From an uncultured virus (IMG/VR IMGVR_UViG_2562617116_000002) (lineage: Duplodnaviria; Heunggongvirae; Uroviricota; Caudoviricetes): DNA of 20,000 nucleotides. Under the pieces are notes generated by a model, which saw only the letters and a list, made by a program, of their open reading frames with translations, searched no databases and was not told where the DNA came from. Positions 2,763 through 20,000 of the stretch are shown here, piece after piece. Numbering within the stretch: position 1 is the first letter of the stretch; each line of letters starts with the position of its first letter. Position numbers and translations under genes: made by a program. The DNA is taken from positions 47,580 through 67,579 of IMG/VR virus record IMGVR_UViG_2562617116_000002. The stretch is one strand, 5' to 3'.

Positions 2763-3398
2763 TTATACAGCAAGATAAACACTAATATCGCCGTGCTGTG
2801 ATGCGTCATAGTTTTTCGCAAGTTTGCGAATCTCACGTGTTACGGTGTAGTGGTGAACACCTAGCTTACGTCCAATTTGCCGGGCGCTAGGTTGTTCGGG
2901 TGAAAGATGTTCTTTAACGATTGCCGTCGTTAAAGCATCTGAGTTATTCGTTAGGGCCTCGATAAGTTGCCGCTTATCGTGGTCCGTTTTTATTTCGCCT
3001 GATACTCGATCAACTACATAAGATTCTAAATCGAAATCCGATGCAGATTCGAATGTTGCCGCATTCTCCTCCGCGGTCGTGTCTAACGGAATTGATCGCT
3101 TAACATATGTCCCATTCTTTTTCCTGGTAACATCGATCGCAGCTCTTGCTAAGTGTAGTTTGAAGTGGCTAACAACATCGGTTGATTTTTGCTTGTCGAA
3201 GTTCTTTGCACACCACCAAACTCGTTCGTTTAATTCACTTACAATTTCATCCCGCAATACCGCGCTTGTTCTTGAGTATTTCCTCGCGATATTTGAAACC
3301 ATAGATTTGAAATGATCAAATATGTTTCGGAATGATTGGCTGCTCCCTGTGGTCTGGAACTCATCAATCAGCTTTATTAAGTTTTTTTCGTGTTCCAA
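2763..3398 (-). CDS. Phage-encoded sigma-70-family (SigH/ECF-sized) RNA polymerase sigma factor, 211 aa
   Basis: Region-2-like segment (IARKY...DEIV...VWWCAKNFDKQK...AAIDVTRK) and C-terminal HTH (SARQIGRKLGVHHYTVTREIRKL); TTG start with AAAGGGG RBS. Confidence 0.75.
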   Translation of the reverse strand: MEHEKNLIKLIDEFQTTGSSQSFRNIFDHFKSMVSNIARKYSRTSAVLRDEIVSELNERVWWCAKNFDKQKSTDVVSHFKLHLARAAIDVTRKKNGTYVKRSIPLDTTAEENAATFESASDFDLESYVVDRVSGEIKTDHDKRQLIEALTNNSDALTTAIVKEHLSPEQPSARQIGRKLGVHHYTVTREIRKLAKNYDASQHGDISVYLAV

Positions 3399-3414
3399 CT
3401 ATCATTTCCCCTTT

Positions 3415-3451
3415 CAATAATAACTGCGAATCTTGGATAAAGATTGGCACA
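3415..3451 (-). promoter_or_regulatory. Phage-specific promoter motif upstream of the sigma gene
   Basis: Minus strand TGTGCCA-N16-CGCAGTTATTATTG with an upstream A-tract; same motif as the 14783-15065 array and 3832-3868. Confidence 0.65.
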
Positions 3452-3526
3452 TGTTTTTTTATTTTTTTTATAAGTTTTTCTTCCATGACCATATATTAGC
3501 ATGATTTGATATTGAATTTTCTGAAA

Positions 3527-3560
3527 GTGAACAAGGTTTTGAAATACTACTTTTGTTCAC
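3527..3560. promoter_or_regulatory. Candidate AimR operator (inverted repeat GTGAACAA-N18-TTGTTCAC)
   Basis: Perfect 8-bp arms with a long spacer, downstream of aimP. It lies just upstream of an extended -10 (TG-C-TAATAT, 3501-3493) that lacks a good -35. Confidence 0.55.
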
Positions 3561-3580
3561 ACGTTTAAACAAAATGGATA

Positions 3581-3608
3581 AATAAAAGCCGCCCTAAATG
3601 GGCGACCT
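3581..3608 (-). terminator. Intrinsic terminator after aimP
   Basis: GGTCGCCC-ATTTA-GGGCGGCT hairpin followed by TTTATTT. Confidence 0.7.
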
Positions 3609-3612
3609 TGTC

Positions 3613-3741
3613 CTAACCTCCTATGATATTAATTGCAAGTTCTTTCTGCTGTTCTACTCCGCCACCATTAATTGATTTAAGCGCTAACCCTCCTGCCACA
3701 ACTACTCCCAACACTAAAGCAACTGATAAAATCTTTTTCAA
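3613..3741 (-). CDS. aimP: Arbitrium pro-peptide AimP, 42 aa (MKKILSVALVLGVVVAGGLALKSINGGGVEQQKELAINIIGG); predicted mature peptide INIIGG
   Basis: TTG start with AAAGGAGAGG RBS; Sec-type signal (MKK plus hydrophobic core); C-terminal hexapeptide after ...ELA; overlaps the aimR 3' end. Confidence 0.85.
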   Translation of the reverse strand: MKKILSVALVLGVVVAGGLALKSINGGGVEQQKELAINIIGG

Positions 3742-4906
3742 ATAAAACCTCTCCTTTTGGATTACCTTTACTTAGATTAGCAAGAGATTTAACAAACTCG
3801 GAATTTTCCCCCGCGTTGATCAAATCCCTCACAATAATAACTGCGAAATAAAGATTGGAATTGGCAACGAAATAGTGAAATTTTTTATACAAACTTTCAA
3901 CTTTTTTTCCTTCCATACTTCTAAGGTAATCCAATAAATCGAGATCGCCGACTTTTTTAACATTTTTCTCTGCTTCAGAAAAGGAGATTTTTCCTTCTTT
4001 ATAGCGCTGAACTGATAAAACTGATTCGTGATCATCTTTATCTAATTCAATAGACAGGAGAAGTTTCCCCATACTCAGGTTATATTCTGAAACCTCCATT
4101 ATTAACTCTGAATTAGTTTCCGCGGCCGTAGCGCAACTCTTCTCAAGGAAAAAAAGACATTTTTTGGGGCTTTTAATTAGATAAGACATACCTAACACAT
4201 AATAGGCATCTGATTCAGCTCTTTTGTTGATATTAGATTGCAGAATAATACTAGCGTAGTGCCTAGCCTCTTCTAAGTTGTTCAAAAACAAATTCGCGAC
4301 GGAAAGTACCTCCGATAGACGAAACAGATAGCATTCCTTTAAGAACAGCCGTGTCTTGTCGCTCAAAGATTTAATTTCGGCCTCGATATCAGCTGCCTTA
4401 TCTATTAAGTAGGAGAATTGACGTTTGTGTAGTAGAACGATGCATTTGTAGATATTCAAGAGAATTTTTAAAGAAGCATCACTGATGTTTTTTAAGGCAG
4501 ACAGCGCGTCGCCCATTTGGTGAAATTTTGTTTCGCCAGTCATATAACTGTATATAAAAGAGTAAACCTTCACATACTGACCAATAACTCCTTTTGTTGT
4601 CCTGTGTTTGGTTAACAATTGGTTTAATAGTCCAACATCACGTGTTACAGCAGCATACTCAAATGTGTTTTTAATACAATCATCTGTTCTCATTTTAAGG
4701 CACCACTGACGCATTTTGCTTTTATAATTTTTAGGATCTACAAGAAGAATTAGGCGCAATACATTTCTAAAAGTTAACTCCCTCTGTCCGCTTTTTAGGT
4801 AATAAACCTGTCTTGTAGAAATATTTAAAAAGTCCGCAACTTTTTTGTCATCCAAGTCATCTCTGTCTTCAATTTTATTAAATAAGAACTCCCTTACACC
4901 TTCCAT
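3677..4906 (-). CDS. aimR: AimR-family arbitrium peptide receptor (N-terminal HTH plus TPR), 409 aa
   Basis: Start re-assigned to ATG 4906 (GGGGTG RBS). N-terminal HTH (VADFLNISTRQVYYLKSG), FEYA motif, TPR-like helices (AYYVLGMSYL), adjacent secreted pro-peptide gene. Confidence 0.85.
   Translation of the reverse strand: MEGVREFLFNKIEDRDDLDDKKVADFLNISTRQVYYLKSGQRELTFRNVLRLILLVDPKNYKSKMRQWCLKMRTDDCIKNTFEYAAVTRDVGLLNQLLTKHRTTKGVIGQYVKVYSFIYSYMTGETKFHQMGDALSALKNISDASLKILLNIYKCIVLLHKRQFSYLIDKAADIEAEIKSLSDKTRLFLKECYLFRLSEVLSVANLFLNNLEEARHYASIILQSNINKRAESDAYYVLGMSYLIKSPKKCLFFLEKSCATAAETNSELIMEVSEYNLSMGKLLLSIELDKDDHESVLSVQRYKEGKISFSEAEKNVKKVGDLDLLDYLRSMEGKKVESLYKKFHYFVANSNLYFAVIIVRDLINAGENSEFVKSLANLSKGNPKGEVLFEKDFISCFSVGSSCGRRVSA
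3832..3868 (-). promoter_or_regulatory. Phage-specific promoter motif inside aimR, ~90 bp upstream of the aimP start
   Basis: GTTGCCA-N16-CGCAGTTATTATTG; its 16-nt core (plus strand CAATAATAACTGCGAA) is identical to 3415-3430, with identical spacing. Confidence 0.6.
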
Positions 4907-4963: not shown

Positions 4964-4992
4964 ATTATAACGAAAATGTTTATACGTGTAAA
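4964..4992 (-). promoter_or_regulatory. SigA promoter of aimR
   Basis: TTTACA-17 nt-TATAAT on the minus strand. Confidence 0.65.
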
Positions 4993-5015: not shown

Positions 5016-5237
5016 ATGGTTGATTTTTCGCCTTTATTCGATACTTTAAGAGAAAAAGGAATGAAACTGAGTGATTTGAGACAAGTTATCAGTTCCAGGA
5101 CGCAAGCTAGTATTAAAGAAAACCACTTACAAAAAAATCTCAAAATGTATATAGGTACCCTGGAAAAAATCTGCTTATTCCTAGAGGTGCCCGTTGAGAA
5201 AGTCATTAAAATAGTTCCTGATAACGTAGAAAAATAA
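5016..5237 (+). CDS. Cro/C1-type (HTH_26-like) transcriptional regulator, 73 aa
   Basis: F-S-P-L...L..KGM N-terminus and TLEKICLFLEVPVEKVI C-terminus; AGGAGG RBS. Confidence 0.8.
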   Translation: MVDFSPLFDTLREKGMKLSDLRQVISSRTQASIKENHLQKNLKMYIGTLEKICLFLEVPVEKVIKIVPDNVEK

Positions 5238-5283
5238 CGATATTTAAGCTATAATTTCCCCGTGAAGCAAAAGCTTTGCGGAG

Positions 5284-5511
5284 GTGTTTAATACGGTTAA
5301 GTATCGTCGAGGTAAATGTTTACTTCGCGACCGACTCCGTGAAGCTGGAATGAACCAAGCGCAGCTCGCCGATAGGTCTGGCGTTAAAGAATCGCATGTA
5401 TCCGGTTATGTACACGGAACAAAACGGATGAACCTTGATACTGCGAAAACTTTTTCGGTAATTCTAAACTGCCGCATGGACGACCTGTACGAATGGATCG
5501 TCGAGGAATAA
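5284..5511 (+). CDS. XRE-family HTH transcriptional regulator (~72-75 aa; start uncertain)
   Basis: GMNQAQLADRSGVKESHVSGYVHG HTH; C-terminal DDLYEW; TATAAT at 5250-5255. Confidence 0.85.
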   Translation: MFNTVKYRRGKCLLRDRLREAGMNQAQLADRSGVKESHVSGYVHGTKRMNLDTAKTFSVILNCRMDDLYEWIVEE

Positions 5512-14782: not shown

Positions 14783-15065
14783 CCTTCACAAGATAATACC
14801 CGCGACTTTTCAAAACCGCACAATAAATCCGGAAATTTTTCCGTCTTCACTTATACAACCCCACAAGTAACGCCGTTTTTGGGACATCGACTCCGAGAAA
14901 ATTATTTTCCGCCTTCACTTATAACTGCGCAACGACTTTCCGAAATGGACACCGTTTTTAAAATTTCGCTGTCATAGATAACTGCGAAGTCATTTCCGGA
15001 ATGGCACACGTTTTTCTGCGTTCATTATTAGTTGCGTATAAAGTTTCCGGATCGGACAGCGTTTT
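14783..15065 (-). repeat. Five tandem degenerate 50-68 bp units, each a bipartite promoter-like motif TGT(G)C(C/G)-N15/17-CGCAGTTAT-like-N3-TGA
   Basis: Plus-strand TCA anchors at 14786, 14847, 14915, 14972 and 15022; lies between the integrase terminator and the first gene of the replication operon. Confidence 0.75.
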
Positions 15066-16158: not shown

Positions 16159-16191
16159 AAAAAACCGCCTCCTAAATTCGTTTAGAAGACG
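16159..16191 (-). terminator. Terminator-like hairpin that contains the integrase RBS
   Basis: CGTCT(T/C)CTAAA-CGAA-TTTAGGAGGCG followed by GTTTTTT and then CATG. Confidence 0.65.
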
Positions 16192-16203
16192 ATTGATAAT
16201 CGA

Positions 16204-16275
16204 TGCGCTACACTGTCGGATTTAGGTGCGTTACACTGCGATTAGTCATCGTGTAAGTCACCGTTTAGTCATCGT
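16204..16275. repeat. Candidate integrase arm / Xis binding sites
   Basis: TGCG(C/T)TACACTG at 16204 and 16227; T(T/A)AGTCA(T/C)CGT at 16242, 16254 and 16265; all between the att core and int. Confidence 0.55.
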
Positions 16276-16301
16276 TGATATAGCGCTGTTTATTCGCAAG
16301 A

Positions 16302-16343
16302 TGGAGCATAGCGGGCTCGAACCGCTGACCTCTACACTGCCAG
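16302..16343 (-). other. 3' 42 nt of tRNA-Ala (anticodon loop to discriminator); probable att core sequence
   Basis: Begins exactly at the first base of the 7-nt anticodon loop (CTGGCAG). Confidence 0.55.
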
Positions 16344-16481
16344 NCCGCCTCCTAAATTCGTTTAGGAGACGATTGATAATCGATGCGCTACACTGTCGGA
16401 TTTAGGTGCGTTACACTGCGATTAGTCATCGTGTAAGTCACCGTTTAGTCATCGTTGATATAGCGCTGTTTATTCGCAAGA

Positions 16482-16554
16482 TGGAGCATAGCGGGCTCGA
16501 ACCGCTGACCTCTACACTGCCAGTGTAGCGCTCTCCCAGCTGAGCTAATGCCCC
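16482..16554 (-). tRNA. tRNA-Ala(GGC), 73 nt, CCA not encoded; prophage attachment site
   Basis: GGGGCATTAGCTCAGCTGGGAGAGCGCTACACTGGCAGTGTAGAGGTCAGCGGTTCGAGCCCGCTATGCTCCA folds as a cloverleaf; anticodon GGC; G3:U70 identity pair. Confidence 0.96.
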
Positions 16555-16669: not shown

Positions 16670-17656
16670 CTATTGCTTTGATTTTTCAAAACAGAACTGA
16701 GTGAACCTTTCAGACAAATCCAGAATGTCATCTATCCTAGGCAAGGCAGTGATCCATTCTTCCGGGATGCTTTCCATTTGATCATACATTCCAGCCATTG
16801 TACCTGTAATAAAGGCAATTGTATCTGTGTCTTCCCCCAGGTTCACTGCTTCCAATACAGCATCAGAATAACGGTCTGAATTGAGGAAACACCACAATGC
16901 CGCTTCTAAAGAGTGCACAACATAGCCGTCTGACATGATGTTTTCTCTTTTAACACTCGCAATGTCATCATTAAGTATCCTCTTATACGAAGAAAACTCA
17001 TTTTCATACTCGGTTCCTCTCAAATTCTCCAAACAAGAATGGACTGCTTGTTTATACGCCTCTTTAGGAGAATGATCAAACAAGTTTATTAAGAATTCTA
17101 TATAAATGATACATCCCAGCGTAGATCGGGGATGACGATGTGTAATAAATGCCCACCTTTCGATCTCAGCTTGTCTTTTTGAAAAATCTGATTCGTTCCA
17201 TAGCATAAAAGCCAACGGAGATATTCTCATCAATGCTCCGTTTCCATTATCAAACTCAGACGCTCCGCCGCATTGTTCAATTGGAACGCCCCTTTTGAAG
17301 CGCTCGATTGCATCATCAGTCGCTCTGCCAATATCAAACATGCTGCCGTATGGAGTCCAGTACCCTTCCCGATACGCAGCAAACTTTTTCATCAATTCGG
17401 TCTCATCTTTTTCTTCGATCAGATTCTCCATTAAACACAAAGTGAGTGATGTATCATCTGACCATGTCCCAGGCGGTTGATTATAAGTCCCGTACCCTAT
17501 CATTCCAGTGATATTTAATTTTCTAGCTTTAAATTCCACAGGGACGCCCAGCGCATCACCGATAACCCCGCCAAGGATAGTGGAGTACAGTCTTTTTTTA
17601 AATTGTGAGATATGGTTATCATCGTTCCACTGAAACGATATTATTCTTCTTTTCAT
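16670..17656 (-). CDS. ADP-ribosylglycohydrolase (ARH/DraG family), 328 aa
   Basis: GDALG, WSDDT, GNGALMR, ITH and DTDT motifs; start re-assigned to ATG 17656 (upstream ATG 17695 also possible). Confidence 0.92.
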   Translation of the reverse strand: MKRRIISFQWNDDNHISQFKKRLYSTILGGVIGDALGVPVEFKARKLNITGMIGYGTYNQPPGTWSDDTSLTLCLMENLIEEKDETELMKKFAAYREGYWTPYGSMFDIGRATDDAIERFKRGVPIEQCGGASEFDNGNGALMRISPLAFMLWNESDFSKRQAEIERWAFITHRHPRSTLGCIIYIEFLINLFDHSPKEAYKQAVHSCLENLRGTEYENEFSSYKRILNDDIASVKRENIMSDGYVVHSLEAALWCFLNSDRYSDAVLEAVNLGEDTDTIAFITGTMAGMYDQMESIPEEWITALPRIDDILDLSERFTQFCFEKSKQ

Positions 17657-17754
17657 TTGGCACACCCGCTTTGTTGATTCATCTTGAAAACGCATGGAGA
17701 TCGATTTCCATGCGTTTTAGTTTTATTTGCTCTTCTTTTTTTTAACCCATTCAA

Positions 17755-18393
17755 TTAATTATTAAAATAGTCACTAACTATTCTATCTAATTTGTCGTTT
17801 CCTTTTTCATTTTCAGAAAGATATTCTATAAAAAAATTATCAATTTCTTCATTTTTAAAATGACTAATATATAAGAACAATGTTTCCAAACTATGATTTG
17901 TTGTCCACTCTTTCAATTGTCTGCGTCCTATCTTAATCGAATCCTCTATAAAATAGTCATCCTTTATTTCCATTAATAATTCTAAAATAAAATCTCTCTC
18001 ATCCTGATTCTCTCCTTGCAATATCTCGCGCATTTCATCTTGACTCATTTCTTGTATATATATATCCTTTTTCGCCCTCCAAAAATCATCTAAGGCAGTA
18101 CCATCTTCCTCATAAAACATGGACCAAAATCCACTATAAGAAATAAATTTATGAGTAAGCTTATACTCATCTTCTGCTATTTTTTTTTCAACATAATTAG
18201 AATTGTTGTTTGAGACAGTTTTAAAATATTTTGCTTCATATGGAATTACACTTCCGTAATCATCCTGAATTCTAAATGAGTTATAATTAATTTCTTCATC
18301 ATTTTTTTTATACTCACATTCATAAACGGAATAGATTTTGTTTTGTGTTATATCAGGTAAACTATTGTCTCTTTCTATACACTTTACTCTCAT
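17755..18393 (-). CDS. Probable cognate immunity protein, 212 aa
   Basis: Directly follows the toxin; shares the low GC of the toxin tip; acidic; GAGGTG RBS before ATG 18393. Confidence 0.7.
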   Translation of the reverse strand: MRVKCIERDNSLPDITQNKIYSVYECEYKKNDEEINYNSFRIQDDYGSVIPYEAKYFKTVSNNNSNYVEKKIAEDEYKLTHKFISYSGFWSMFYEEDGTALDDFWRAKKDIYIQEMSQDEMREILQGENQDERDFILELLMEIKDDYFIEDSIKIGRRQLKEWTTNHSLETLFLYISHFKNEEIDNFFIEYLSENEKGNDKLDRIVSDYFNN

Positions 18394-18398
18394 TTTAA

Positions 18399-20000
18399 TC
18401 ACCTCAGTTTAGACGGTACAAAATTGTCATCTAAATCTATAATCCAAAATAAATCCTTCGAGTCTTTTCGTAAATCTTTTGGTTTCGGGATTTTCAATTT
18501 ACTATCAAATGAGCTTACTTCACCAGTTCTTGAGTTTTGATAGTAATGTATCTTTCCCTCTCCAAACTCTGTTTTATATGAATATATCGATTCCATTTTC
18601 CACCAATCACTAATGTTCGAACCATCTCTAGTCAATATATCAACTGCCTTTTGATCCCATAAGTCGGCTCCATTAATTATTTTTTTTGAGTTGCTTATTA
18701 TATCACCTTTTAATAATTCCTTTTTTAGTAGTTGATATGCATATATATCAATAGAAACTGGATTATATTTTTCCGAACTATTTGTTGTCTTAGCACCAGA
18801 AGAACTACTCCCTTTGCCGACTTTCCCAGCCTCAATCTCCTTCTCAACCCGCTGAATCGAATCCTGCATCTTCGCTTTCGACGCCTTATGGGCGTCGTTG
18901 ACGTGGGCGGAGTAATTGGACCCTTTTCGGACGAGGGTGCCGCCGGCTCCTGCTTCTGCACCGCGGGCAATATCGCTCAAAGCGTCGGCGCTTTTGGCGA
19001 ATTGTTTTTTGATGGCGAAGCCTGCGTCGTTGAGTCGGTCTTGAGCTTTCAGCCCATTCACCTTCATGCGGTTCGCCCAGATGTTTTTGCTGTCTTTAAA
19101 AGATTGTACCATATGTTCTGTTTTGCTTGAAATTTGGCCGATTGTGGCTGCGCTTTTAAATGTACCTTTTGCCGCGGCTGCCCCCGGGATGATGTCAAGG
19201 GCGCCGAACACGCCTCTTTCAAACCTTTCGTCTGTGTTTAACTCCCGTTGTGTCATCCAGTCTTTTCCGGTTGCGGCGCTCGAAATATTGGCTCCTCCGT
19301 AGGCGACGGCCACCGTGAGACCTGCCGGTGCACAAAAGATGGTGAGCACGATGATGCCTGCACCGGCCAGAAGATCCCGCCACAATTCCTGATTCTTTTG
19401 GACATCTCCGATTGATTCGTATTCAAATCCGCGGGAAGAGGCAATCGCTTTCATGTATTCTTCATACGATAATTCGATGTCGGGGTGGTTGATCTGGAAT
19501 TCTTCAAATTCTTTGCTCAGTACGTGATCAAACGATTCCGAGTCTTTGAAGATATCATTTACGCTCACTTTCGCTTTGTCGGTTTCGACCGCTTGTTTGG
19601 ACATGCCGTATCCGACGTAAGTGGTTTCCTTGGAGCCGATCCGGTTCGCGGTCGTGTAATTATGTATCGTCAGTCCGCGCATTTTTTCGGCGAACGCGTC
19701 TATTTTTTTATAAAAAGGGCTGTCAATGTGATCTTCCACCAAACTGCCGGCTTTCATGCAAAAGTCAGCCAGCTTTTGATAATCCTTAAACAGTTCCTCG
19801 ATCTTGCTTTTTTTGCTTGTGTGGGTAAAGCTGATCGCCCTGTCGCTGTCCTTGTCTTTGATTTTGGATTCGATATCTTCCAAGAGATCGTTGAGTTTGA
19901 TAAGGCCGGCTTTCATACCGCCGCCATATGGTCCGCCCGTCAGCGCATCGAGCCCGTCTTTCATGCCCTGCCATTCTTCCGGTACGTATTTCACATCCAT
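18399..20000 (-). CDS. T7SSb polymorphic toxin, EsaD-like N-terminus plus pre-toxin TG domain plus variable C-terminal domain, 533 aa
   Basis: DSDRAISF and IDSPFYKKID recall the S. aureus EsaD N-terminus (from memory). Hydrophobic segment followed by AATGKDWMTQREL...ER (PT-TG). Abrupt GC drop near 18810. Start lies at the window edge, so the RBS is not visible. Confidence 0.8.
   Translation of the reverse strand: MDVKYVPEEWQGMKDGLDALTGGPYGGGMKAGLIKLNDLLEDIESKIKDKDSDRAISFTHTSKKSKIEELFKDYQKLADFCMKAGSLVEDHIDSPFYKKIDAFAEKMRGLTIHNYTTANRIGSKETTYVGYGMSKQAVETDKAKVSVNDIFKDSESFDHVLSKEFEEFQINHPDIELSYEEYMKAIASSRGFEYESIGDVQKNQELWRDLLAGAGIIVLTIFCAPAGLTVAVAYGGANISSAATGKDWMTQRELNTDERFERGVFGALDIIPGAAAAKGTFKSAATIGQISSKTEHMVQSFKDSKNIWANRMKVNGLKAQDRLNDAGFAIKKQFAKSADALSDIARGAEAGAGGTLVRKGSNYSAHVNDAHKASKAKMQDSIQRVEKEIEAGKVGKGSSSSGAKTTNSSEKYNPVSIDIYAYQLLKKELLKGDIISNSKKIINGADLWDQKAVDILTRDGSNISDWWKMESIYSYKTEFGEGKIHYYQNSRTGEVSSFDSKLKIPKPKDLRKDSKDLFWIIDLDDNFVPSKLR

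Follow-up and report, generated by a model that had tools for sequence, protein, structure and literature searches.

The DNA analyzed here, a stretch of 20,000 nucleotides referred to below as the window, comes from a 67,579-base record of a temperate Bacillus phage, of which it forms the left arm, and its genes lie mostly on the minus strand. Judged by the sigma gene, the annotated relatives nearest to it are phi18-2, 268TH002, and 268TH007 (48% identity; 5 records matched). Searches of GTDB returned few relatives (2 loci; 4/91; 5/401 genomes), and the 12 related loci that were scanned fall into 7 cassette types with AimR identities of 41 to 84%. The cassette contains the following features, given in window coordinates and in the order of the genes:

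4964..4992, minus strand: sigma-A-like promoter of aimR, TTTACA-17-TATAAT, 11/12 consensus
3677..4903, minus strand: aimR, arbitrium receptor, 408 aa (PF22871, E 1e-22; NF038310, 200.8 bits, cut-off 70)
3748..3754, minus strand: ribosome-binding site of aimP, GGAGAGG, from the sequence
3613..3741, minus strand: aimP, ORF for a 42-aa pre-peptide with C-terminal AINIIGG, TTG start at 3741
3585..3609, minus strand: intrinsic terminator 3' of aimP (z -4.3; in 7/7 types)
3529..3558, no strand assigned: inverted repeat GAAC-N22-GTTC, candidate AimR operator (8/14 loci, namely the 7 types and L039)
3493..3501, minus strand: extended -10 box TGCTAATAT, candidate AimR-dependent sigma-A promoter of the sigma gene (14/14 loci)
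2763..3398, minus strand: sigma-70-family factor, 211 aa, regions 2 and 4 (PF04542, 26.7 bits, cut-off 24)

Both NF038310 and PF22871 place the receptor in the AimR family. The adjacent 42-aa ORF has the KK, hydrophobic stretch, and GG end of a short secreted pre-peptide; the name aimP is based on this shape and on position, as the product has no family match in profile searches. Similar ORFs can be found by pattern search in 22 of 24 loci of relatives. The gene shares 65 nt with the 3' end of aimR, the only terminator-like match between the two is a stem of 5 pairs, and the promoter of aimR, read by eye, is similar in all 7 types. The sigma factor has the region 2 and region 4 HTH of the sigma-70 family; its HTH matches are weak, the TIGR02937 score is under the cut-off, and a predicted fold of moderate quality (pLDDT 68, pTM 0.45) has sigma factors as its top structural matches (best E 8e-4). 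A gap of 215 nt separates the aimP terminator from the sigma gene. Here the extended -10 sits 26 to 27 nt behind the GAAC-N22-GTTC box in 8/8 loci, and the distance of the box from the terminator looks less fixed by eye. This repeat appears to be a better AimR site than the motif inside aimR described below. A LexA site was also considered at 3529-3558 and rejected, as the spacer is 22 and not the 4 of a LexA site. Divergent from aimR are two small HTH genes (5016-5511, plus strand), kept in most relatives, which are candidates for a repressor pair, though they lie upstream and not downstream of aimP.

A sequence-only reading of this DNA proposed that a copy of a phage promoter motif is hidden within aimR, positioned to drive aimP. 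The features that bear on this proposal are:

3867-3837, minus strand: internal promoter motif TTGCCA-15-TCGCAGTTAT, at aimR codons ~346-357
3862..3867, minus strand: -35 box TTGCCA of the internal promoter, tracking sigma region 4
3837..3846, minus strand: -10 box TCGCAGTTAT of the internal promoter, tracking sigma region 2
3780..3832, minus strand: 53-nt stem-loop with which the predicted aimP transcript begins, inside aimR (-23.7 kcal/mol, z -4.3)
3420..3450, minus strand: sigma-proximal copy of the motif, candidate self-activating promoter, by sequence match
14921..15058, minus strand: three tandem motif variants ahead of the early replication operon, by motif scan

The description of the motif given in that reading is borne out. 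The 16-mer shared by aimR and the region upstream of the sigma gene is exact at 3832-3847 and 3415-3430, and TGCCA (3866-3862, minus strand) lies 16 nt ahead of CGCAGTTAT with the same spacing in the sigma-upstream copy. The predicted start, at ~3832, is 91 nt ahead of the aimP TTG at 3741, where about 90 bp had been claimed. A chance match had been called unlikely, and the window indeed holds 4 matches (≤3 mismatches) against 0.28 expected, a number reached in 0/200 shuffles. When a matrix is built from the 5 non-coding copies only, the aimR copy ranks first of 135,158 positions in the 67.6-kb contig. The exact motif occurs in 0/20,000 codon-order shuffles of aimR and is kept in 615/200,000 synonymous recodings of the same residues.

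Searching the contig with a relaxed form of the motif gives 6 copies, all 6 on the gene strand (aimR, sigma, three at the early operon, and dUTPase). The four beyond the aimR and sigma pair are the tandem copies at window positions 15058, 15007, and 14951, and one ahead of the dUTPase gene. Near-fixed boxes that are upstream of and co-directional with genes are the mark of an alternative-sigma promoter; the spacer here is 14 to 15 (6-mer frame).

The prediction that the motif would be conserved in homologues also holds, as 12/12 scanned loci carry the motif both ahead of sigma and at the equivalent position in aimR. Excess synonymous conservation had been predicted as well and is found: synonymous identity is 0.76 over the 14 motif codons versus 0.47 gene-wide. 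Among other aimR windows outside the aimP overlap, 1/356 is as high, and it is located just upstream of the motif. The raised identity in fact spans ~28 codons, extending ~14 codons upstream of the motif, which an A-rich upstream element would explain. Four outgroup AimRs have partly conserved residues at this place and the motif in 0/4. The internal and proximal copies are not homologous, yet they vary together. Taking both boxes, 3/5040 pairings of internal with proximal copies across the 7 types are as good as the true one, although the types are related and the P values of this and of the correlation tests below are optimistic. For the -10 box the figure is 4/5040. The -35 box is weak alone, at 600/5040 with 6 columns and 120/5040 with 5 columns chosen afterwards, one -35 class being common to 5/7 types, and the spacer does not co-vary (3857/5040). 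Changes in the motif alter AimR residues, with V/T/S at the -10 box and A/S at the -35 box.

A conserved structure lies at the predicted start. In both the aimR and the proximal copies a G is found 8 nt behind CGCAGT, corresponding to 3832 in aimR, and the hairpin begins at the predicted +1 in 7/7 types; its beginning at 3832 fits the predicted start. In all 7 types the 60-nt window of the hairpin is among the 3 most stable of ~390 in aimR, and 0 to 13 of 400 synonymous recodings fold as well. In an alignment of 10 rows (3 near-duplicates), 90% of hairpin cells pair, with 13 cells changed on both sides (0/500 shuffles) and 5 pairs showing two-sided change (32/500 shuffles), both values being inflated by relatedness. 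When four outgroup aimRs are folded at the same place, two show some structure, though weaker (15 and 6 of 400), and the other two show none. Rfam gave 0 matches at E ≤ 1 within 3300-4000. As a terminator the hairpin was rejected, there being no U run behind it in the 7 types, and a role as an RNase III site is possible. Since RppH of B. subtilis requires unpaired 5' nucleotides (PMC3997798), its likeliest role would be that of a 5' stabilizer of the message.

Co-variation can also indicate which protein reads the motif. The -10 box follows sigma region 2 (r 0.69 for the internal copy, 12/5040, and 0.79 for the proximal, 6/5040) and does not track region 4, while the -35 box follows region 4 (r 0.75 to 0.90, 84 to 168/5040) and does not track region 2. 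This is the domain-wise correspondence of an alternative sigma factor, seen here by co-variation in 7 types only. Against AimR, the AimR HTH, and the flanking residues, the boxes give |r| ≤ 0.20 throughout, none of it significant (7 types). Cassettes with exchanged parts in more distant phages point the same way. For example, near-identical AimRs accompany different sigma families and proximal motifs (L054/L056, 95%; L055/L061, 99%), while L029 and L056 have AimRs that are 27% identical, yet share sigma family and motif. Across L053-L064, aimR-aimP pairs that hardly differ stand next to sigma genes of two unrelated-looking families, which shows swaps at the aimP-sigma junction. Mgbh1, which is without an annotated aimR, has its own bipartite motif ahead of a sigma homologue and in 2 to 3 further places; when word pairs were sought de novo in KLEB27-1, Mgbh1, and Tripp, the result was mostly noise. 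By these sequence comparisons, the cassette swaps and the aimR-less phage show that such motifs follow the sigma gene.

Taken together, the motif is probably a sigma-dependent aimP promoter inside aimR, and the proposal that sigma would raise aimP output is well supported by sequence comparison. The analysis shows sequence, conservation, co-variation, and predicted folding, and we infer transcription at this site, its sigma dependence, the mode of action of AimR, and the effect on peptide level. An alternative that is unlikely, though partly compatible with sigma-driven aimP, is that the promoter serves mainly an AimR-gated positive loop, in which AimR antiterminates the aimP-promoter transcript into the sigma gene, with surplus AimP as a side product. 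Antitermination by AimR is known for the aimP-promoter transcripts of phi3T and SPbeta (PMC10769878), and the order of terminator, box, and output gene matches that of these phages. However, the fixed 26- to 27-nt distance from box to extended -10 (8/8 loci) is as expected for an activator, the terminator distance is by eye the less fixed, and the proximal copy of sigma itself makes a second positive route less needed.

The motif might also be read by another factor, either a conserved phage protein or a host sigma, and not by the adjacent sigma, which we consider improbable. In its favor, GTGCCA..CGCAGTT copies, which are of the kind seen in this window, lie near the early operon or dUTPase of 7/8 relatives with other sigma alleles, the eighth being G002, which is missing the early region. 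This persistence beside other alleles means that specificity is not strict, or that the sites serve another allele or factor. However, each of those relatives has its own motif type as well, within aimR and at the sigma gene, and also at the early operon where that region is present, and both the domain-wise co-variation and the cassette swaps tie the motif to sigma. It is very improbable that the motif is instead an AimR operator through which AimR activates aimP. TGCCAA..TTCGCA in the window is an imperfect inverted repeat, and SPbeta AimR binds additional operators (PMC6458997), but its binding is lost on short spacers (PMC6458997), a separate inverted repeat is already in the usual place, the motif lacks any correlation with AimR or its HTH, near-identical AimRs are paired with different motifs, and the same kind of motif occurs in the aimR-less phage. 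Coincidence, with conserved AimR residues happening to spell the motif, has hardly any chance of being correct: the residues S-N-x-F/Y-F/Y-A/S are kept in outgroup AimRs too and in L039 the codons TAC GCA are present there with no promoter to match, but the residues vary with the non-coding copy, few synonymous recodings keep the motif, and none of the 4 outgroup AimRs has it.

With a sigma-dependent aimP promoter as the preferred reading, a circuit can be outlined. In the absence of peptide, AimR would turn on the sigma gene, as the box and extended -10 behind the aimP terminator suggest. Sigma would then amplify its own gene from the proximal copy, open the replication operons, and initiate, from the copy within aimR, a short aimP message beginning at ~3832. 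This message would have a base-paired 5' end, which should stabilize it, and its 3' end would be set by the aimP terminator. On entering the lytic program, cells would thereby make extra AimP above the basal aimR-aimP supply, and this AimP would push neighboring infections towards dormancy, forming a delayed negative loop. The negative feedback on AimR that had been suggested is likely, and since AimR control is exerted upstream of the self-activating copy, it would act mostly on neighboring infections. If AimR antiterminates here as in phi3T, the internal promoter would also feed sigma while peptide is low. The stronger claim that only cells committed to lysis broadcast the signal is not supported. 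The aimR gene has a conserved sigma-A-like promoter, aimP overlaps aimR, and only a 5-pair stem lies between, so that basal, sigma-independent AimP is to be expected. AimP is made by SPbeta lysogens (10.1101/2021.09.20.460909, PMC8612738).

Beyond the close relatives the element becomes rare. Of 17 outgroup aimR-sigma loci from ~7 AimR lineages, 16 are without their own proximal motif in aimR. This count relies on a choice by eye of the proximal motif in L071 and L073, and it does not include L065, which is partial, or L072, which has no aimR. The internal copy is therefore optional and not needed for the aimR-aimP-sigma wiring. The internal site of L008 matches its own proximal copy at only 12/15 (16/1000 shuffles). 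The outgroup locus that has a copy, L040 (G048:C22:47502-47530), matches its own motif at 16/16, where 15 is reached in 0/5000 shuffles, and the motif pattern has 4 occurrences in this 3.1-Mb genome and 0 when read backwards. The copy lies 509 nt ahead of the aimR stop and ~440 nt ahead of aimP, at other aimR codons than in the window, which suggests a second origin. Its site folds less distinctively than those of the 7 types (51/400).

A broader synthesis can be offered only tentatively, as we judge it slightly more apt to fail than to hold as a whole. A sigma factor switched on by arbitrium would drive a stabilized aimP message from a promoter in aimR codons, coupling the signal to lytic commitment; receptor, promoter, and sigma specificity would evolve as one unit; the promoter would have arisen independently at least twice, each time at other aimR codons; and the early operon would keep promoters for several alleles for cassette swaps or cross-activation. 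The amount and timing of signal per infected cell decide what arbitrium measures, whether lysogen number or recent lytic events. A promoter tying AimP to a lytic sigma would make this a separable, mutable element. The family includes the cultured B. subtilis phages 268TH002, 268TH007, and phi18-2.

Some parts of this design have precedents. In the rap-phr systems of Bacillus subtilis, the receptor gene contains a phr promoter besides the bicistronic promoter (PMC5199041, S2 Fig legend), and phr genes are controlled by an alternative sigma, sigma-H (PMC7641744). The likeness is that the peptide gene downstream has a promoter within an RRNPP receptor gene, with an alternative sigma involved. However, the receptor here is AimR, and the sigma, which is phage-encoded, varies together with the promoter and is likely the receptor's own output, whereas sigma-H reports host state and not the output of the circuit itself. 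The cassette would work alike without belonging to rap-phr, which is defined by a Rap receptor and a host sigma-H promoter. In phi3T and SPbeta, aimP has its own promoter (PMC10769878) and the gene order is the same up to the AimR box (aimR-aimP-terminator-AimR box); a terminator behind aimP and then a conserved inverted repeat, the candidate AimR box, are both present here. Unlike in those phages, the output is a sigma factor and not AimX, and the box is GAAC-N22-GTTC followed by an extended -10, with a spacer of 22 rather than 25. The extended arbitrium module (aimX-aimC-aimL; phi106, phiW23) is similar in that AimR and AimP control lytic entry, but here a co-directional sigma gene takes the place of an opposed aimC behind aimP, and the two small HTH genes are upstream of aimR rather than opposed directly behind aimP.

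The cassette would fall in the generic RP class of a recent arbitrium survey (10.1101/2025.11.23.689978), in the accessible text of which the word sigma does not occur. The accessible text of the announcement of 268TH002/007 (PMC9476937) likewise makes no mention of arbitrium, AimR, or sigma. A literature search, with most subscription papers outside its scope, returned no description of a phage-sigma promoter for aimP. Receptor-internal peptide promoters are thus known from rap-phr; what appears to be new is the probable phage-sigma promoter in aimR, the conserved hairpin at its predicted start, and the separate site of G048.

Several minor observations can be added. The tandem variants at 14921-15058 fit three sigma alleles, namely the L008 type, the window's own type, and the L007 type, and the early operon of relatives also has 2 to 3 motif variants. 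With such multiple variants, related prophages could exchange cassettes or cross-activate one another. The sigma genes of L005, L008, L012, and L013 are mosaic; their regions 2 and 4 group differently, which suggests recombination within the gene. In L014 and L023 (G009, G006) the sigma gene is split over two frames, and both promoter copies are intact there. Close to the integrase is a tRNA-Ala (16482-16554), adjoining a stretch of ~180 nt at the attachment site that is doubled (window 16165-16525, with an N at 16344) and may be an assembly artifact or an att duplication. Past the prophage end, 16670-20000 on the minus strand carries what we take to be host genes: an ADP-ribosylglycohydrolase-like gene, a 215-aa gene, and a long LXG-like polymorphic toxin ORF.
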